In this document: positions 1,643-20,880 of the stretch, piece by piece
How positions within the stretch are numbered: position 1 is the stretch's first letter
How the letters are laid out: each line of letters opens with the position of its first letter
DNA from: an uncultured Planctomycetia bacterium
GTDB taxonomy: Bacteria > Omnitrophota > Gorgyraeia > Duberdicusellales > 4484-171
DNA length: 32,000 bases
NCBI GenBank assembly: GCA_964536865.1
Contig: CAZHYN010000006.1
Coordinates: 39,172 to 71,171, forward strand
Direction: 5' to 3'
The notes under the pieces: generated by a model
What the model was told of the DNA's origin: nothing
Database searches by the model: none
What the model saw: only the letters and a program-made list of their open reading frames with translations
Position numbers and translations under genes: made by a program

Positions 1643-1670
1643 TTGCCTAAATATTTTTCTATGTTATAAT
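1643..1670 (+). promoter_or_regulatory. sigma70-like promoter for the tRNA-Phe locus
   Basis: -35 TTGCCT (1643-1648), 16-nt spacer, perfect -10 TATAAT (1665-1670). It lies about 20 nt upstream of the orphan tRNA-Phe 5' half. Confidence 0.5.
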
Positions 1671-1688: not shown

Positions 1689-1724
1689 GTGCCGAGGTAG
1701 CTCAGGAGGTAGAGCGAGGGACTG
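1689..1724 (+). repeat. orphan exact duplicate of the tRNA-Phe 5' half (2 leader nt plus tRNA nt 1-34)
   Basis: The 36 nt at 1689-1724 are identical to 1824-1859. Identity ends after anticodon position 34 (..GACTG). Confidence 0.9.
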
Positions 1725-1725
1725 T

Positions 1726-1773
1726 ATGTGATCTCCGACGTTAGTCGGAGTTGCCCGAAGGGCAAAATCACAT
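1726..1773 (+). other. predicted compact three-way-junction fold immediately after the orphan 5' half
   Basis: Outer stem ATGTGAT (1726-1732) / ATCACAT (1767-1773). Hairpin 1: CTCCGAC (1733-1739) / GTCGGAG (1744-1750), loop GTTA. Hairpin 2: TTGCCC (1751-1756) / GGGCAA (1760-1765), loop GAA. Only 1 unpaired junction nt. Confidence 0.4.
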
Positions 1774-1825
1774 CCAGTTATTACTTTTGCTTAATCGAAA
1801 AACTTTTGATTAAAAATAAAACTGT

Positions 1826-1898
1826 GCCGAGGTAGCTCAGGAGGTAGAGCGAGGGACTGAAAATCCCTGCGTCGGGGGTTCGACTCCCTCCCTCGGCA
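1826..1898 (+). tRNA. tRNA-Phe (anticodon GAA), CCA not encoded
   Basis: Cloverleaf by hand: GCCGAGG-TA-GCTC-AGGAGGTA-GAGC-G-AGGGA-CTGAAAA-TCCCT-GCGTC-GGGGG-TTCGACT-CCCTC-CCTCGGC-A (73 nt). Confidence 0.95.
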
Positions 1899-2025
1899 CT
1901 TTTATCTCTAATTTATAAGTTTATTCTCCTCTCTGTGCGTCTTTAAGTGTTCCTAGGCAATGTCGGATCCAACATATAAATACTTTGGTTTCACCAAAGG
2001 TTGGATACGACTCCCTCCCTCGGCA
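1899..2025 (+). repeat. module Phe-A: variable segment + nested hairpin + exact copy of tRNA-Phe nt 56-73
   Basis: CGACTCCCTCCCTCGGCA at 2008-2025 equals 1881-1898. Outer stem 1967-1973 / 2000-2006, 9-nt 5' internal loop ATATAAATA, inner hairpin 1983-1988 / 1994-1999. Confidence 0.8.
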
Positions 2026-2150
2026 TAGTTTATCCTCACATTCATTAACTTCTTTTTTAAGCTGGAAGTTAGCTCTGAGACGAAAGTATCGTCGGAACAA
2101 ATAAGGGAAAATCGCCTTTGGCGAATTTGTTACGACTCCCTCCCTCGGCA
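2026..2150 (+). repeat. module Phe-B: variable segment + nested hairpin + exact copy of tRNA-Phe nt 56-73
   Basis: CGACTCCCTCCCTCGGCA at 2133-2150. Outer stem AACAAAT (2096-2102) / ATTTGTT (2125-2131), 9-nt internal loop AAGGGAAAA, inner hairpin TCGCC (2112-2116) / GGCGA (2120-2124). Followed by CTTTTTGTTTTT. Confidence 0.8.
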
Positions 2151-2227
2151 CTTTTTGTTTTTAAAGTCAGAATTGGAGATATTTTATTTCTGAAGTTACT
2201 TCCTACTTTATTATCTTATTAGTGTTC

Positions 2228-2640: not shown

Positions 2641-5600
2641 TCAAAATGGTAAACCAAATCCTCCATGGAGACGTGAGCGAGTAGTATCTTTATCTGCTCC
2701 TATCTTAAATCCATAGTCTAATTTTACAAATCCCCATTTTGTTCTAAATCGCAATCCTATCCCACCTCCGCTTTTAAATTTATTCAAAGAAAAATCATTC
2801 GCTTCCTCTATTAGAAATCCTGTATCCAAAAATGCAGCTCCATAGAGTAGATTCTTATACAAAGGAAATCTAAATTCTATATTGATTACACCAAAAAAAT
2901 TCCCTCCTAACGGAAGAAGATTGTTATCTAGCATTCCTACTTTTCTTCCTTTGTACCCTCTTATAGTAGAAGAACCTCCTATATAAAACTTTTCAAAAAA
3001 AGGAACTTCATTAGTTCCCCCAAAAGCATCTAAATATCCCCATTTAGTTCTGAGTACAAACACTCTATCTTTTTTAAGATTATAATAACGGCGGTAATCT
3101 AATTGAATTCTATAGAAATCAAAATCTGAACCAATAATTTGAGAAGAGATGTCTTGTTGAATTTTAAAGTAGGTTCCACTGGTAGGATAAATTTTATCAT
3201 TAGTAGTTTTTCTTAGAAATTTTATGAATAAGAAATCTACTTTAGGTTTTCCATAATAACTTTTAATTTTGACAGGTGCAGAAGGGTCTAAATCATAAAT
3301 ACTATACTTATAGGAGGAAAATCCTAAATAGATTTTACTATTTTGTGTAAAATATGTTCCCAGATAGAGATCGTACATAAGTTTCCCTTTCAAATTATAT
3401 CTTGAATCTGATTCCCATCGTCCCTTAAATGAGAGGCCACCAAAGAATATACTGTTCAATATTTCATCCTTTTCAAAGCCTAATTTTAACTTCTTTTCAT
3501 AAGAGGAGTATTTACCTCCAAAAATACCCTTAAAGTTCTTATGTTCATACTTTAGGTGTGCTTTTTCTCCAGTAGGTGCGGATATTTTTAGTTCTCCTAT
3601 TCTTTGGATTTTCTTTTCCTCTTTTAAAGTAAGATTAAGAAATTCTAAAATTTTATTTTCGACGTATCCAAAAGATAAGTAAGAACTGAAGTGCCCCTCC
3701 GGAAGCCAAATAATGCGGGGATATTCCAGAGAACGCCATAGACTCACGCTACACTCAGAGGGCATGTCCTTGTCAAATAGAGCATTTATCATAAGGATAG
3801 TTTTGTTTTTGGCTTTAAAAGAAAAATTTAAAGGATCGATAATATTTACCTCTTCTAGGATTTTCTGTATCTGTTTTTCTTTAAGTTTTAATCTATATTT
3901 TTTAAGTAATCTACTCTTTAGTATAAACTTTTCGAAATCTGCACCCCCAAGGAGAAATACACCTCTGTTTATCGTTGCATCTTTGCCTAGAAGAGTTCCT
4001 GCAATGATAGCTCCTAGACTTAATCCTCCCAGAGCTATCCTATCATTATTTATAAAAGATTGTCTCTTCAGCCACTCTAAGGTATTTCCCCCTTCAATAG
4101 TTAGTTCTTTTATTAGATCTGTATAAATTTTTACTCTTTTTTGAAGGGATATATTCCTTAGTCTATCTTTATGTTGATGGTAAAATTTTTTTGCACCTAG
4201 TTCTAAAGTTACAAAAGCAAAATTATTCTTCGTTAAGAATTTTCCTAAATTTTCTTCAATGAATTTACTTACCCCTCCAGAGTGAGGGAGGAAAAATAAA
4301 CAAGGATATTTTCCCTTCTTATTAGAAAGGAAGAGATAGATAAAAATATATTTGTTAGGTAATTTTAAATCTAATTTGCTTTCATAAACAAAAGTTAATT
4401 TTCTATAGTATTTTTTATTTTCTTCTTTTTCTAAAATAGGAAATATTTCTCTTTCATTTTCTTTCAAAAATCGATAAGGATTTTTAGTAGTTTTTGGAGG
4501 CAATTTTTTGCCAAATTCTTTTTCTAGGGAAAAATCAATTTCTTTTTCAGAGAGGAGGAAATACAGTCTTAGTTCATCAGGAACGAACAAGACACTTTGT
4601 AAAGTTCCCCCTCCTTTCCCTATAGGTGGTGTTCTTAATAAATTAAATGTACTTTTTAAATCAAACTTTTTATTGCCTCTCGCAGTTTTCTTGAACTGAA
4701 CCAATCGCTTATACGAACTAGTTTCTTCTAATTTTGTCTTTGGATACACCGCTTTCATAGTTTGGAATAGTCTTTCTGTGAGATAGTGATTTACAGCAAT
4801 AAGATACTTATCTTTTGGAAAAATAATCTCGTACATTCTTGCTGAGACTTCTGCGACAAATGCACTGTTCGTTTTCCCATCAGTTATAGTTATGGTATAT
4901 CCCCTCATTCTTTTTGATTTAGATATTTCTCTTAGAGCTTTCCATAGATCAGGAGAATATTGGATAATTTTCCTTAAAAGGAACATAATCGGGATTCCAG
5001 TTTTTGATAAATCTTCAGTTCCCACTCCAGTTTCTCCTAAAGATATTCTATTTGCATTCATACCAGTTAACACTCCACACATTCCTGGCCAGCCAATGTG
5101 CACAAAAGGAAAGCCATTGTCGGGTTCTACGAAAAAGATTACCCTATTTTTAAATAGATTTTTTCGTGGAGCAAAACCTAGATTTCTTCCATGAAAAAGT
5201 TTGTTACTTTGAGTTAATTCAGGCAAAAGTACGAAATTAGTACATGTTTTTTTAATTTTTCTTAAGAGAGGCATAACATCTAGAAAGGTATGCATCAGAA
5301 GAATTTTTTGATAAGATAGACCGCTTCCTTTAGCCACTCCTCTCATTTCTTCCCTAAATTCAGAAGGGATATATTTTTCTAATTGTCTCGATTTAAGTTT
5401 AAAGTACTGCAAGATAATCCACCGTTTTAATTTTGAATGAGAAGAACTTTGGAGAAGCTCTTTTAAGAAGTAATTATTATAAAGTTGACGAATTTGGTTT
5501 CTTAAAAGATATCCGTGCTGAAATCCTCTTATAAATGGAGAACCTTTAAGATGAACTACAAGAATTCCATTTGTATTTTTTAAAGACGCTCCTTTTAGAT

Positions 5601-5679
5601 AGTTTACTTTAGGTGAAGTGGAAGAAGGAAGGATAAAGAAAATAGTAATAGTAAAAATCGAAACAATAAATTTCTTCAC
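2641..5679 (-). CDS. secreted multidomain protein: C45-type Ntn hydrolase/acyltransferase + alpha/beta-hydrolase + C-terminal Omp85-type beta-barrel
   Basis: Signal peptide MKKFIVSIFTITIFFILPSS. C45-like RGFQHGYLL, KTCTNF..HGRNLGF, HIGWPGMCGVLTGMN. GxSxG nucleophile elbow GGLSLGAIIAG. Omp85 / bacterial-surface-antigen motifs FYIGGSSTIRGY and GGGIGLRFRTKWGFVKLDYGF. C-terminal residue is Phe. Confidence 0.75.
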   Translation of the reverse strand: MKKFIVSIFTITIFFILPSSTSPKVNYLKGASLKNTNGILVVHLKGSPFIRGFQHGYLLRNQIRQLYNNYFLKELLQSSSHSKLKRWIILQYFKLKSRQLEKYIPSEFREEMRGVAKGSGLSYQKILLMHTFLDVMPLLRKIKKTCTNFVLLPELTQSNKLFHGRNLGFAPRKNLFKNRVIFFVEPDNGFPFVHIGWPGMCGVLTGMNANRISLGETGVGTEDLSKTGIPIMFLLRKIIQYSPDLWKALREISKSKRMRGYTITITDGKTNSAFVAEVSARMYEIIFPKDKYLIAVNHYLTERLFQTMKAVYPKTKLEETSSYKRLVQFKKTARGNKKFDLKSTFNLLRTPPIGKGGGTLQSVLFVPDELRLYFLLSEKEIDFSLEKEFGKKLPPKTTKNPYRFLKENEREIFPILEKEENKKYYRKLTFVYESKLDLKLPNKYIFIYLFLSNKKGKYPCLFFLPHSGGVSKFIEENLGKFLTKNNFAFVTLELGAKKFYHQHKDRLRNISLQKRVKIYTDLIKELTIEGGNTLEWLKRQSFINNDRIALGGLSLGAIIAGTLLGKDATINRGVFLLGGADFEKFILKSRLLKKYRLKLKEKQIQKILEEVNIIDPLNFSFKAKNKTILMINALFDKDMPSECSVSLWRSLEYPRIIWLPEGHFSSYLSFGYVENKILEFLNLTLKEEKKIQRIGELKISAPTGEKAHLKYEHKNFKGIFGGKYSSYEKKLKLGFEKDEILNSIFFGGLSFKGRWESDSRYNLKGKLMYDLYLGTYFTQNSKIYLGFSSYKYSIYDLDPSAPVKIKSYYGKPKVDFLFIKFLRKTTNDKIYPTSGTYFKIQQDISSQIIGSDFDFYRIQLDYRRYYNLKKDRVFVLRTKWGYLDAFGGTNEVPFFEKFYIGGSSTIRGYKGRKVGMLDNNLLPLGGNFFGVINIEFRFPLYKNLLYGAAFLDTGFLIEEANDFSLNKFKSGGGIGLRFRTKWGFVKLDYGFKIGADKDTTRSRLHGGFGLPF

Positions 5680-5689
5680 AAAATCTATT

Positions 5690-7087
5690 TTAATACTTCA
5701 GAATATACTTTTCAATCTTTTGCGGAGAGTCTAAATCTCTGTTAATTTCTTTCCAGACGTCTTTGCTCTCCATGCATAAATATATAGGTGTTTTTGTGTC
5801 GTATTTTCTTATCCAGGATATCGTTTTTTTATAAATTTCAATTCTTAAAAATGCAGGATACCTCAATTTTTTATCTTCTCCTAAAAAGAGCTCTCCATAG
5901 AATATCTTACTTTCTGGAAATCTTTGCTCAACAATATCTTTTAACTCTCTCGGACCACGAAGAGTTCCTAGGCTGATCCATTTAAAAGGAGGGTTTAAGG
6001 TGCGATACAATTCATCTATTATCTTCCTATAAGAATTTTCCCATCCCTCAAAATATATTATAGGATCGAAATGAAATCCTAAAGAAAAGCCCTTCCTCTG
6101 TACCTCTTTAGCTGATTCAATCCTTTCTTCTAAAGTGGAAGTACCTATCTCTTCTTTTTCTATGATTTCCCAGGGATTGAGAGACCAAGAAATGACTATA
6201 TTAGGAGAGGCTTGACATTCTAAGAGATTGTTTATTTTTTTACTCTTTGTTTTTAACTCAAAATATAGATTTTTATCTTTAAAAAAATTAATTAAAATTT
6301 TGCTATACTCAGTGATATCATCTAAAGCTAAAGAGTCACAGAACTCACCTGTGCCAATTCTTATTGGTTTTTTTAATTTTCTGTAGAATTCTTTAAATTT
6401 ACTAAAAAAGTCGTCCAAATTTGAAGGGAGGATGACGCCAGGAAAGTTAGAGTAAACTTGAAGGTAACAGTAAGTACAATCAAAGGGACAGCCAAAACCT
6501 AAGTTAAATATCCAATAGTTACATCTCAATACATTTTTTGTGCAGGGGCAGGGCTTTAAGAAGTCCCACCTTTCCTTTACTACAAAAATAATTGGTTTTT
6601 TAAAATCTGCTAAGCTGAACTTATGTGTTTTTAAATATTCAGCATAGTAGGGGATCTCGCAAATTTCTATATAAGGAAATTTCTTTTTTATCTTCTTTAT
6701 AAGATAACTACATTTAGCCTCTTTTTCTACAAATACCTTTTGAGGAATGATACTTTCTTGATGTGGAGAGGGGTGATAACAGTTTCGGAGAGGTTCTTTT
6801 AAAGATGAGAGGTAAATAGTTTTTGTATCAATTTTAGAGAGCCTTGCTGTGAGGGGGAATCTTAAATTTATCAGGTTTTCCTTTAAAACGAAGAATTTAT
6901 TTCTTCCACCTGTTTTTCTTATTCTGGGATTATTCTTCAATTCTTCTATTAGAGTGTAAGGTTGTATATCTTTAATAATACATATTTCATATATTAAACG
7001 CTGTAAGTCTCTGAGCTGATTGCGGTTAGGAGAGAAAGCAACTTCCCTTTCTAAAATAGATTTTAAATTTTTTAGAGCCTCTTGCAT
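5690..7087 (-). CDS. spore-photoproduct-lyase (SPL) family radical SAM protein with an N-terminal extension of about 190 aa
   Basis: KPCPCTKNVLRCNYWIFNLGFGCPFDCTYCYLQVY: a CxxxCxxC cluster in the SPL-type context (..YC.LQ.Y). Ends 10 nt upstream of the next gene. Confidence 0.7.
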   Translation of the reverse strand: MQEALKNLKSILEREVAFSPNRNQLRDLQRLIYEICIIKDIQPYTLIEELKNNPRIRKTGGRNKFFVLKENLINLRFPLTARLSKIDTKTIYLSSLKEPLRNCYHPSPHQESIIPQKVFVEKEAKCSYLIKKIKKKFPYIEICEIPYYAEYLKTHKFSLADFKKPIIFVVKERWDFLKPCPCTKNVLRCNYWIFNLGFGCPFDCTYCYLQVYSNFPGVILPSNLDDFFSKFKEFYRKLKKPIRIGTGEFCDSLALDDITEYSKILINFFKDKNLYFELKTKSKKINNLLECQASPNIVISWSLNPWEIIEKEEIGTSTLEERIESAKEVQRKGFSLGFHFDPIIYFEGWENSYRKIIDELYRTLNPPFKWISLGTLRGPRELKDIVEQRFPESKIFYGELFLGEDKKLRYPAFLRIEIYKKTISWIRKYDTKTPIYLCMESKDVWKEINRDLDSPQKIEKYILKY

Positions 7088-11403: not shown

Positions 11404-11458
11404 GCAAAGATAGAAATGCTAATATAATTCAGTTGGCAGAGTAATTCTGTATCTTTGC
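11404..11458 (+). other. leader hairpin abutting tRNA-Thr that encloses a D-arm-like tRNA fragment
   Basis: GCAAAGATA (11404-11412) pairs with TATCTTTGC (11450-11458), and the last 2 nt are tRNA nt 1-2. The loop contains GCTAATA-TA-ATTC-AGTTGGCA-GAGT, which resembles an acceptor 5' strand plus a D arm. Confidence 0.35.
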
Positions 11459-11528
11459 CGGGATAGCTCAGTGGTAGAGCAGGTGCTTCGTAAGCATCAG
11501 GTCGAGAGTTCGAATCTCTCTCCCGGCT
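11457..11528 (+). tRNA. tRNA-Thr (anticodon CGU), CCA not encoded
   Basis: GCCGGGA-TA-GCTC-AGTGGTA-GAGC-A-GGTGC-TTCGTAA-GCATC-AGGTC-GAGAG-TTCGAAT-CTCTC-TCCCGGC-T (72 nt). Confidence 0.93.
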
Positions 11529-11553
11529 TATAAATAGAGATACCAGATAACTC

Positions 11554-11578
11554 AGAGGTTCAAATCCTCTCTCCGGCT
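11554..11578 (+). repeat. orphan diverged tRNA 3' fragment (complete T arm + acceptor 3' strand + discriminator)
   Basis: AGAGG-TTCAAAT-CCTCT-CTCCGGC-T compared with the tRNA-Thr GAGAG-TTCGAAT-CTCTC-TCCCGGC-T. No matching 5' acceptor strand nearby. Ends 11 nt before the MFS start codon. Confidence 0.7.
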
Positions 11579-11589
11579 AAGGAGATGAG

Positions 11590-12849
11590 ATGTTTGTATC
11601 TTACTTTAAGGTCTTAAAAAGGAGAAATTTTTTTCTTCTATGGTTTGGTCAGGTAATTTCTCAATTTGGAGATCGTCTCACCCAGATGGCCCTGATAGGT
11701 TTAGTGTATGAGCTTATGCCTCATTCCTCTATGAGTTTAGCTAAGGTTATGAGTTTACCTGTGTTGGCGGTACTATTAATTTCCCCAGTAGCAGGAGTTT
11801 ATGTAGATAGATGGCAAAAAAGAAAGACTATGTATGTAAGTGATTTCTTAAGAGGAATATGTATAGCCCTTATTTTCATTCTGATTTTTAAGTTTAAAAC
11901 AATGATTTTTATCTACTTCCTTATTTTTCTTTCTTTTTGTGTAGGTAGATTTTTTATCCCTGCTAAGATGGCTATAATTCCTACTCTAGTAGATCAAAAG
12001 GATCTCCTCTTAGCTAACTCATTAGTTTCAATTACTGCTATGATTGCTGCTATTTTAGGTTTTGGTTTAGGGGGGATAATTGTAGAAAAGTTAGGTGTAA
12101 AAGTAGCTTTTTTAATAGATAGTGTGACTTTTTTCCTTTCTTCCTTAGCAGTACTTTCTATGAGGGTACAAGAAAGAGGGTTATTTAGTCCGAAGGATTT
12201 TCTTGATTTAAGTAAGCAAGCTATTGAAGAGGTAAAACGTTCTTTTATATTTGAGATGAAAGAAGGATTAAAGTATCTTCTTAAAAGTAAAGAGACCCGT
12301 TATGCTGCCCAGGTATTTTTTCTTCTTTTTTCCTGTTTAGGCTCTCTTTATGTAGTATTCATTGTTTTTATTCAAAATACCCTTTCTTCAGTTACTTTAG
12401 ATTTAGGATACCTTGCTGTAGGTCTGGGCACAGGGTTATTTGTGGGTTCTTTAATTTATGGAAAGATAGGTAAAAGGTACCCTTTTAAAAAATCAATAAA
12501 TGTATCTTTACTCATCAATAGTATTTATTTAATATCATTTGTTACTGTACTGAAGTTTCACCCCTCTAAATTTTTTGCTTTCTTTTCTTGTTTTCTTCTA
12601 GGAGGATTTTCATCTCCTGTTGTGGTGGGAATTAATGCTTTAATTCATAGTGAAAGTCAAAATATTTTTTGGGGTAGAATTTTTAGTTCTCTGGAAGTAG
12701 TGATGCATTTTGCATTTATAGCTTTTATGTTTTTATCTTCTTATCTAGCAGGATTTTTTTCTCCCTTTACAATAATTGTGAGTGTAGGTATAATTATATT
12801 CTTTTTTTCCTCCTTTAGATTACTTAATGAGCCTAAAGGCAATGATTAG
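11590..12849 (+). CDS. MFS transporter (EntS/MFS_3-like)
   Basis: 419 aa with about 12 predicted TM helices. N-terminus FFLLWFGQVISQFGDRLTQMAL is typical of this MFS subgroup. SD AAGGAG upstream. Confidence 0.8.
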   Translation: MFVSYFKVLKRRNFFLLWFGQVISQFGDRLTQMALIGLVYELMPHSSMSLAKVMSLPVLAVLLISPVAGVYVDRWQKRKTMYVSDFLRGICIALIFILIFKFKTMIFIYFLIFLSFCVGRFFIPAKMAIIPTLVDQKDLLLANSLVSITAMIAAILGFGLGGIIVEKLGVKVAFLIDSVTFFLSSLAVLSMRVQERGLFSPKDFLDLSKQAIEEVKRSFIFEMKEGLKYLLKSKETRYAAQVFFLLFSCLGSLYVVFIVFIQNTLSSVTLDLGYLAVGLGTGLFVGSLIYGKIGKRYPFKKSINVSLLINSIYLISFVTVLKFHPSKFFAFFSCFLLGGFSSPVVVGINALIHSESQNIFWGRIFSSLEVVMHFAFIAFMFLSSYLAGFFSPFTIIVSVGIIIFFFSSFRLLNEPKGND

Positions 12850-20561: not shown

Positions 20562-20638
<77 letters not shown>

Positions 20639-20767
20639 TTTCTATTAATCTTAATCTATGTTATGTAATCTTTATCTCGCTTACTATGCAAAAGCAATTT
20701 TGGATGCAATAAATAAAAGACTCCGCCTCTGGCGGAGATTGCATACAAATCGGCCCCCCGCAACCAT
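20639..20767 (+). repeat. module fMet-1: variable segment + nested hairpin + exact copy of tRNA-fMet nt 56-76
   Basis: CAAATCGGCCCCCCGCAACCAT at 20746-20767 equals 20618-20639. Outer stem ATGCAAT (20704-20710) / ATTGCAT (20738-20744), 10-nt internal loop AAATAAAAGA, inner hairpin CTCCGCC (20721-20727) / GGCGGAG (20731-20737). Confidence 0.8.
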
Positions 20768-20880
20768 CTAAATTTCTACCCGAGCTTTAAGAGATACTAC
20801 TTTTATATTATAGGCGAGCGTAATTTTGATGTGATAAATATGTGAACGTTTCAACTTAGGGAAGGTTGCACACAAATCAC
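20768..20880 (+). repeat. module fMet-2 (degenerate): keeps the hairpin 3' strand and T-loop part only
   Basis: GTTGCACACAAATC (20865-20878) compared with ATTGCATACAAATC (20738-20751). CAAATC recurs at 20873, 127 nt after 20746. The tRNA acceptor part is absent and only a weaker hairpin remains (20852-20868). Confidence 0.5.

Follow-up and report, generated by a model that had tools for sequence, protein, structure and literature searches.

The 32,000-nucleotide stretch of DNA analysed here (hereinafter, the window; contig CAZHYN010000006.1, AT-rich, about 33% GC) comes from an uncultured bacterium of the phylum Omnitrophota and carries, on both sides of its tRNA-Phe gene and behind its initiator tRNA-Met gene, short non-coding modules with a hairpin that abuts a copy of a part of the tRNA gene. 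An earlier note on this DNA had drawn attention to a displaced 5' half of tRNA-Phe followed by a compact fold and had treated this insert as a 5' class distinct from the modules at the 3' side of the same gene. According to our analysis the 5' insert belongs to the same family, is placed in the opposite orientation, and forms no separate class. With a probability of roughly 0.55 we consider the modules to be miniature, non-autonomous, hairpin-guided site-specific insertion elements; the family is probably new miniature mobile DNA of a little-studied phylum.

The orphan half of tRNA-Phe marks the insertion point of a non-coding hairpin element of about 100 bases, which is designated below as El5. 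Nucleotides 1689-1724 and 1824-1859 form a direct repeat (36/36 nt identical, spacing 135 nt) that spans leader positions -2 and -1 and tRNA-Phe positions 1-34; the anticodon of the intact tRNA-Phe(GAA) gene at 1826-1899 (Rfam score 67.7 bits) starts from position 34 in the ARAGORN prediction, and the identity ends with G34, its first base. Both the exact duplication and the break directly after anticodon position 34, as the earlier note had described them, are thus confirmed. The promoter-like sequence TTGCCT-16-TATAAT at 1643-1670 (10/12 positions match, TG extension) was the sole plus-strand site returned by a promoter scan of positions 1400-2300, and it stands ahead of the orphan half, not of the intact gene. 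In a more distant relative (locus L011) a homologous promoter (aaaatt..TTGCCTAA..TGcTATAAT) directly precedes an uninterrupted tRNA-Phe gene, which is immediately followed by a T-run, with neither the 5' insert nor the 3' modules, i.e., the locus is empty on both sides. Because of this arrangement the promoter of the window is, as judged by sequence comparison, the native one, and the orphan half the original 5' end of tRNA-Phe. The proposal therefore holds that an insertion of about 135 nt at the anticodon loop moved the native 5' part and its promoter away and yet left an intact gene behind. As to the further idea that the insert carried its own tRNA 5' half, the duplicated half is real, whereas its carriage did not stand as such: the data allow equally that the repeat was carried by the element and that it was copied from the target at insertion.

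Positions 1726-1773, within El5, fold into a 7-bp stem closing two hairpins of 7 and 6 bp (-24.2 kcal/mol); shuffled sequences gave a mean of -9.3 (z -5.65), none of 200 being equally good, in agreement with the earlier judgement that such a fold is unlikely by chance. The whole insert (1725-1825) gave a z of -5.66. The outer stem proved longer than had been noticed, with ACTG at 1721-1724, still within the tRNA-identical part of the orphan half, pairing with CAGT at 1775-1778 past a single mismatch. The approximately 100 nt between the 36-nt repeats have no second copy, hence the arrangement is not a tandem duplication.

The two 3' modules reported behind tRNA-Phe are real as well: CGACTCCCTCCCTCGGCA, corresponding to tRNA-Phe positions 56-73, occurs in three copies with spacings of 127 and 125 nt, which delimit the modules PheA and PheB (Table 1). 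A 128-nt unit of the same kind, MetA, follows the initiator tRNA-Met (tRNA-fMet), its 22-nt repeat beginning at C56 of this tRNA, and is itself followed by a decayed copy, MetB, in which only CAAATCA remains of the repeat. The common plan of the modules comprises an AT-rich left part (about 55-60 nt in the 3' units) and then a hairpin of the form N4'-G-H7...inner hairpin(s)...H7'-A/T-N4; the terminal 4 nt of this hairpin coincide with the start of the tRNA-identical repeat. In general form the hairpin foot reads 5'-N3'-G-G-A...T-(A/T)-C-N3-3', with 7 covarying base pairs inside; a purine-rich spacer lies on the 5' side, and the GC-rich inner hairpins, one or two, stand flush against the 3' arm. 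The three-way junction of El5 is this outer stem with an inner hairpin, the usual A-rich spacer being replaced by a second hairpin, and downstream of it on the minus strand tRNA positions 34 to -2 stand in reverse complement. Every copy has a strong right-end hairpin; a left-end hairpin is present in PheB and El5 only, being weak or absent in others, and the minus-strand left end of El5, AGTTTTATTTTTAATC, resembles that of PheB, AGTTTATCC. Unit sizes are alike (bodies 99-108 nt, periods 125-135 nt) despite weak similarity of primary sequence, for which the best pair is PheA-MetA (z 5.1), El5-PheA and El5-PheB being not significant; the homology of the modules therefore rests on architecture and not on alignment.

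A strict motif (4 bp, G, 7 bp, 12-50 nt, 7 bp, A, 4 bp, all perfect), sought on both strands of the 32 kb, was matched exactly four times, at 1962-2011(+), 2091-2136(+), 20699-20749(+) and 1721-1778(-), every match directly preceding tRNA-identical sequence; shuffled windows yielded 0-1 matches, and a scan with one mismatch allowed gave background matches alone. As DNA, the four window modules fold to a common architecture with z from -3.5 to -7.5, the latter value belonging to the hairpin domain of El5, and two copies found in a relative (locus L005, see below) with z of -4.7 and -4.0. Covariation was counted over the outer-stem arms of five distinct copies, which were excised by coordinate since MAFFT misaligned the 5' arm of El5. 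All 55 of 55 cells were Watson-Crick and 9 of 11 pairs showed changes on both sides, a result reached by 0 of 500 shuffles, while slid controls were 27-47% paired; invariant were G4, G5 and A6 together with T19 and C21, i.e., GGA opposite T-(A/T)-C. The fold thus recurs and covaries elsewhere, the point on which its significance had been made to depend. Across the four window modules 76 of 76 stem pairs are Watson-Crick with no G-T pair, which, together with the free orientation of the modules relative to tRNA transcription, favours pairing in DNA over pairing in RNA co-transcribed with the tRNA. With a covariance model built from PheA, PheB and MetA only (leave-one-out), the 5' insert was the best non-training match in the window, on the minus strand only (17.3 bits, E about 0.04 under a rough calibration), the next background match having 12.8 bits; elsewhere the model recognized L005 at 176-224 (28.5 bits, E 1e-4) and at 44-98 (21.3 bits, E 0.009), and a decayed copy in locus L004 (22.1 bits).

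In every insertion the module directly follows the first two bases of a loop TTC in a tRNA gene, and the flanking direct repeat starts at that C and runs to the end of the gene on that strand, an intact gene being left in place. On the sense strand the target is T54-T55-C56 of the T loop (TT/CGAC in tRNA-Phe and TT/CAAA in tRNA-fMet, the slash denoting the insertion point), and the modules PheA, PheB and MetA lie 3' of their genes. Antisense insertions appear as an orphan 5' part upstream of the gene: for El5 the target is the reverse complement of the GAA anticodon (TTTT/CAGT, with TT/C as the reverse complement of G34-A35-A36), and for the L005 modules that of G13-A14-A15 (TT/CCGC) in what we take, from the usual layout of tRNA-Leu, to be the D loop, the intact gene lying off the contig. 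El5 thus shows the features that define the family, namely a hairpin abutting a tRNA repeat that runs to the gene end and insertion after the TT of a loop TTC. The repeats measure 14-15, 19, 22 and 36 nt, and all of them end at the gene boundary. In each case the hairpin 5' foot N3'-GGA is complementary, with G-T wobble, to its own target TTC-N3, which is the layout expected of a short guide.

The antisense target of El5, TT/CAG-TCCCTC, imitates the T loop and stem of tRNA-Phe, TT/CGAC-TCCCTC; the pattern TTC-N2-3-TCCCTC occurs at 1879(+), 1861(-) and 6038(+), with expectations of 0.24 per window and about 5e-4 per tRNA. Moreover, since the acceptor stem of tRNA-Phe is self-complementary, the two ends of the reverse-complemented 36-nt 5' repeat match the 19-nt 3' repeat in collinear order (16/19 identical positions). 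This double alignment and the T-arm look-alike would explain why tRNA-Phe was hit on the other strand. The third site, TTC-N3-TCCCTC at 6038-6050 (TTCCCATCCCTCA), lies inside a coding region and has no insertion; sequence alone, outside a tRNA loop, is apparently insufficient as a target. Two other origins of the repeats were considered and rejected. Mature tRNA or tRNA fragments do not fit as their source, since the Phe repeats have no CCA and CCA is not encoded by this gene, and an inversion between the anticodon pseudo-site and the junction of a 3' module would leave the reverse complement of tRNA positions 35-73 beside the insert, which is absent.

Table 1. Modules, tRNA genes and associated features of the window (slash, insertion point)
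Feature	Position	Strand	Description
Apparently native tRNA-Phe promoter	1643..1670	+	TTGCCT-16-TG-TATAAT; now 135 nt farther from the gene; conserved in L027
Displaced, apparently original tRNA-Phe 5' part	1689..1724	+	positions -2, -1, 1-34; in minus-strand view, right-hand direct repeat of the inverted module
El5, hairpin domain of inverted module	1721..1778	-	strict motif, fold and model match; contains the 1726-1773 fold; ACTG-G-ATGTGAT / T / TTGCCC-TTC-GGGCAA / CTCCGAC-TAAC-GTCGGAG / ATCACAT-A-CAGT
El5, left part	1779..1823	-	AT-rich; small AT hairpin at about 1791-1813
Intact tRNA-Phe(GAA)	1826..1899	+	gene-side repeat copies at 1824-1859 and 1881-1899
PheA	1900..2026	+	body 1900-2007; hairpin domain 1962-2011; repeat of tRNA positions 56-74 at 2008-2026; foot GTCG-G-ATCCAAC...GTTGGAT-A-CGAC
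PheB	2027..2151	+	body 2027-2132; hairpin domain 2091-2136; repeat 2133-2151, then native T-rich trailer; foot GTCG-G-AACAAAT...ATTTGTT-A-CGAC
tRNA-Thr(CGT)	11457..11528		found, like the other tRNA genes, by ARAGORN and Rfam
Initiator tRNA-Met (CAT)	20562..20638	+	T loop TT/CAAAT
MetA	20640..20767	+	body 20640-20745; hairpin domain 20699-20749; 22-nt tRNA 3'-end repeat 20746-20767; foot TTTG-G-ATGCAAT...ATTGCAT-A-CAAA
MetB, decayed copy	20768..20878	+	related to MetA (z 3.1); hairpin no longer folds (z +1.5)

Comparison with related loci, which the earlier note had suggested as a check, revealed both empty and filled sites. By NCBI naming the closest proteins of the window are from Candidatus Omnitrophota, with 98% identity to the metagenome-assembled genome (MAG) GCA_021162445.1. 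Besides L011, an empty site is seen in L023, a relative with 67% amino acid identity in the neighbouring TPR protein and a syntenic order DivIC / tRNA-fMet / TPR, where tRNA-fMet is followed by 65 nt and then by the next gene. Filled sites are L022, an independent NCBI MAG of the 98% strain, whose tRNA-fMet array is identical to that of the window, and L027, an independent ENA assembly with a GGDEF neighbour 81% identical in amino acids, in which promoter, orphan half and fold recur with 3 differences in about 135 nt, one of them in a hairpin loop, while the upstream intergenic DNA is far more diverged and has large indels; the orphan half of L027 carries C at a D-loop position occupied by A in the window, and its contig ends inside the fold. 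A 65% relative (L004) retains a decayed pseudo-tRNA-Phe with one decayed PheB-like unit. In a 51% relative (L005) the contig starts inside two tandem inverted modules (1-240, period about 132) at the 5' end of tRNA-Leu, their repeat CCGCCACCCTCGC being the reverse complement of the tRNA-Leu 5' end GCGAGGGTGGCGG; in one of these copies a weak second hairpin also forms. The junction of promoter, orphan half and fold repeated in L027 and the tRNA-fMet array repeated in L022 show that the arrangement is not an assembly artefact.

Several observations were made alongside at these loci. The two L005 modules have identical left parts and outer stems and unrelated inner segments (CTTGTTC-TTAC-GAACAAG and CTCGCC-TTCC-GGCGAG), so that it looks as if the hairpin interior had been exchanged as a cassette; a fragment of an IS110-type transposase lies 8.5 kb from this array, with no evident connection to it. 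The pseudo-tRNA-Phe and module of L004 (about 11550-12300, minus strand) adjoin a gene for an AAT/Omp85 protein, with apparent transposase open reading frame (ORF) fragments ahead and a strong terminator after them, and the DAGK gene of the window is missing there. The corresponding protein of the window (2641-5679, minus strand, 1012 aa) combines an AAT domain (choloylglycine-hydrolase-like acyltransferase) with a C-terminal Omp85 barrel, and its homologues are essentially confined to relatives, some having added esterase domains. Contig L026 of the GCA_021162445.1 strain (2575-2766) diverges fully from the window at about 1531, approximately 160 nt upstream of the orphan half, and continues with 190-240 nt of unrelated sequence containing direct repeats (AAAAACAGGACATTTTTA / AAAACCGGACATTTTTA) and two TTGACA boxes up to the contig end. 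This stretch had no match in any other fetched locus and could represent a strain-specific insertion or rearrangement beside the tRNA-Phe locus. Five independent contigs begin or end at arrays (L001/L002 stop within the PheB repeat, the start of L022 is 9 nt ahead of tRNA-fMet, and L027 and L005 break as described above), which suggests assembly breaks induced by repeats or polymorphism; copy numbers may accordingly be uncertain.

Within the window, the inner hairpins of the 3' modules (minus strand 1983-1999, 2112-2124 and 20721-20737) are followed by a T-rich run and resemble intrinsic terminators facing the tRNA gene, and such a run, which on the tRNA-sense strand would stop transcription of tRNA-Phe, is lacking there in the inverted 5' insert. 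A 76-aa ORF with a GTG start (1921-2151, minus strand) runs antisense across PheA and PheB including the tRNA-derived repeats and is most likely spurious. At 11553-11578, 25 nt past tRNA-Thr(CGT), there is a foreign tRNA 3' fragment with a complete T arm (AGAGG TTCAAAT CCTCT) and the acceptor strand CTCCGGC; being about 75% like the 3' end of tRNA-Thr and having no hairpin module ahead, it stands outside the module family and may be what is left of a second tRNA gene or of some other integration.

Searches for further copies, known families and an enzyme were largely negative. A metagenome scan with a 25-nt tRNA-Phe 5' pattern returned 9 loci, all of them intact tRNA-Phe genes of other bacteria and none with two matches, the source contig not appearing among them and L011 being the sole useful one (empty site, homologous promoter). 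A scan of a genome collection with the 1012-aa AAT/Omp85 protein gave an unrelated Hyphomicrobium match alone, so that neither of these two scans brought up a close relative. The loci reached through the homologues P0003 (except for its first 240 nt), P0014, P0016, P0017 and P0134 lacked synteny at the tRNA, with no orthologous site among them. Rfam yielded tRNA only, both at the gathering threshold and at E<=10, and no family for the insert fold. Viral contigs, scanned with the tRNA-end junctions, the orphan-half junction and the hairpin cores, matched only at tRNA-Tyr genes of giant viruses and at a tRNA gene of a GC-rich phage, none of them relevant. Among phage and plasmid records, blastn with 1689-2160 as query retrieved the tRNA and nothing else, and full-text literature searches found no description of such elements.

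If the modules are insertion elements, they would be moved in trans by a recombinase or transposase acting on a folded hairpin of single-stranded DNA, whose 5' foot N3'-GGA may serve as, or at least matches, a short guide to the target TTC-N3. They would enter TTC loops of tRNA genes on either strand, leaving an intact gene, and new copies would enter the intact gene and push the older ones outward, giving rise to tandem arrays. Several points weigh against this interpretation. No recombinase or transposase gene is present in the window, where all genes found are housekeeping ones, and none is linked to any module copy; neither an excised form, nor a filled/empty polymorphism within a species, nor an autonomous parent was seen, and the 98% strain carries the same fMet array. 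The exact tRNA 5'-part flank of the inverted copy is unexplained under a simple model in which the element carries a tRNA fragment. A 3'-type element inserted in inverse orientation would destroy the gene if its 5' part neither came along nor became duplicated in the process. A full tRNA 3' end is lacking behind MetB, the leave-one-out match of the 5' insert is marginal, the near-identity of the insert in the window and L027 could reflect recent spread but equally purifying selection on a function, and the family is known from only about nine copies in four or five organisms, all sequences being metagenomic.

The same arrangement could be left by integrase-bearing islands or prophages that lost their interior by deletion and kept the att-proximal ends, the 5' insert being then a remnant of the rarer kind of island with a 5' fragment. 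A tRNA gene with a displaced direct-orientation fragment and a crossover in the anticodon or T loop is indeed the classical signature of islands, arrays in which partial tRNAs and degraded elements stand in tandem have precedents, e.g., in tycheposons (10.1101/2020.12.28.424599), and decay is evident in L004 and MetB. Islands with 5' fragments are also as rare as the earlier note had held restoration from the 5' side to be (159/3919 in Islander, PMC4383910); within the module family, however, El5 is not unique in this respect, since two inverted modules lie at the 5' end of tRNA-Leu in L005. Five or six independent random deletions would hardly all leave 99-108 nt, a deletion scar gives no reason for the hairpin foot to change in step with the target tetranucleotide, as it does over four targets, no integrase remnant was found in or beside any copy, and the module sequences are absent from the searched viral contigs and phage and plasmid records, so that we regard this origin as unlikely, albeit deserving attention. 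Still less probable is that the modules are immobile, are inherited vertically and serve the tRNA transcription units as functional structured RNAs or as cis elements, whether processing signals, insulators, antisense terminators or decoys. Such a role would suit the strong conservation of the orphan half and fold in L027 amid diverged intergenic DNA, the terminator-like inner hairpins of PheA, PheB and MetA, and the position of the modules inside or just past tRNA transcription units, yet the 5' insert and the L005 copies are inverted and keep the strand-specific features (mismatch G, 5'-side spacer) on their own strand, G-U pairs are lacking among the 76 counted, Rfam has no match at E<=10, syntenic sites of relatives are without modules while the tRNA is still intact, and a cis-acting RNA role leaves the flanking tRNA repeats unexplained.

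A local accident, i.e., chance duplication or slippage at tRNA-Phe or an assembly artefact with a fortuitous hairpin, might be suspected given that MAG and metagenome contigs tend to break at the arrays (L001/L002, L022, L027, L005) and copy numbers could be mis-assembled; this is effectively refuted by the identical junctions in independent assemblies and by recurrence of the motif, with covariation, at other tRNA junctions of the window and in other organisms, and it agrees neither with the fold z of -5.7 nor with the single-copy sequence between the repeats. Bacterial tRNA introns sit in anticodon loops, and this location, together with the compact three-way junction, could evoke a degenerate group I intron or a small self-cleaving ribozyme, a comparison with known small-ribozyme models having been suggested by the earlier note. 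This is the least credible of the alternatives: the tRNA 5' part, which would be the 5' exon, is duplicated and not interrupted, the junction has essentially no unpaired core nucleotides, no curated ribozyme or intron covariance model matched at E<=10, and the family signature resides on the antisense strand, the only one matched by the family model.

Hairpin-guided insertion of miniature elements can also be put in a bolder form, namely that the modules are a new class of programmable single-strand DNA insertion element, in which the foot hexamer N3'-GGA would select TTC-N3 in an extruded tRNA-gene loop by base pairing and the flanking repeat would be copied from the target over the interval between the cut and the acceptor-stem base. 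This we offer as a speculation that is rather doubtful at present, although it would account for one family restoring 3' ends (19 and 22 nt) and 5' ends (14-15 and 36 nt) alike, for the repeat always ending at the gene boundary, and for an essential single-copy tRNA surviving inverted insertion. Should the modules be mobile in whichever way, no smaller insertion elements that target tRNA genes and restore them would be known, and they would be the first in which the choice of target seems to lie in a hairpin foot and not in protein-DNA contacts of an integrase. The universal TΨC triplet and its look-alikes (GAA anticodon or D loop on the other strand) would be able to act as a landing site, the rare 5'-side tRNA fragments would be explained as inverted use of one mechanism, and co-occurrence of the hairpin model with a recombinase family would provide a handle on the enzyme in a phylum known almost only from metagenomes. 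In practical terms, assemblies break at tRNA genes because of the modules, and pipelines for island detection lose the modules through their size limit and integrase requirement.

Among known systems, REP/REPIN-RAYT and other MITE-like hairpin repeats are short, non-coding, often tandem and mobilised in trans by a single-copy enzyme; they differ from the modules in being intergenic, multi-copy and conserved in sequence, with no tRNA-loop specificity or gene-restoring repeats. The IS200/IS605 elements and their small non-coding derivatives, PATEs, served by the Y1 HUH transposase TnpA (PMC5027513), share with the mechanism proposed here single-strand, hairpin-recognising, strand-specific insertion beside a short target that is read by a guide 5' of the hairpin foot, as in IS608, where the target TTAC is read by the guide AAAG. 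Their hairpins, however, are at both ends, which in the modules is seen at most for PheB and El5, and they have no flanking repeat, no tRNA-loop targeting and no gene restoration, whereas the modules have 14-36-nt flanking repeats, a common target of TTC with 3 variable nucleotides instead of a fixed tetra- or pentanucleotide, a guide pairing that is a simple coaxial extension of the stem, and no tnpA seen. The likeness to integron attC sites (PMC5027507) is one of architecture only and concerns conservation in the folded structure and not in sequence, a variable terminal structure, an unpaired stem feature, paired boxes at the foot with the crossover inside the stem, and purine-rich unpaired parts on one strand; integron cassette arrays likewise grow at one fixed site and may consist of ORF-less units. 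Differences are that the RYYYAAC/GTTRRRY boxes fit PheA alone, by chance (ATCCAAC/GTTGGAT), and not PheB, MetA, El5 or L005, that the foot tetranucleotide is target-specific in the modules and universal in attC, that the target is a tRNA loop and not attI, and that the 14-36-nt repeats restore a gene, the arrays abutting tRNA genes in a window without an integrase gene. Tycheposons of Prochlorococcus (10.1101/2020.12.28.424599) present tandem tRNA insertions separated only by partial tRNA copies, with newer elements pushing older ones outward and degraded remnants accumulating, but they are kilobase elements with tyrosine recombinases and cargo.

A functional parallel is provided by genomic islands and prophages that integrate into tRNA and tmRNA genes by means of tyrosine integrases, as catalogued by Islander, in which sizes of 2-200 kb and an integrase are required and candidates below 2 kb or without an integrase are discarded (PMC4383910); because of these size and integrase filters the modules would go uncatalogued in pipelines of this type. 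Common to both are insertion in a tRNA gene at the anticodon or T loop, regeneration of the intact gene, an intact tRNA gene accompanied by a cognate direct-orientation fragment on the correct side (5', 1689-1724; 3', 2008-2026 and 2133-2151), tandem arrays from successive insertions, and a minority leaving 5' fragments. The modules differ in being 0.1 kb long without integrase or cargo, their intervals of 99-108 nt holding only the spurious antisense ORF, in having a covarying hairpin that spans the junction, and in the use by one family of both strands and three loops. Taken together, the modules structurally resemble attC sites and IS200/IS605 ends, without the defining boxes of the former or the repeat-free insertion of the latter, and they work like tRNA-integrating islands, yet at a far smaller size and without an integrase, the 5' side being reached here through use of the other strand.

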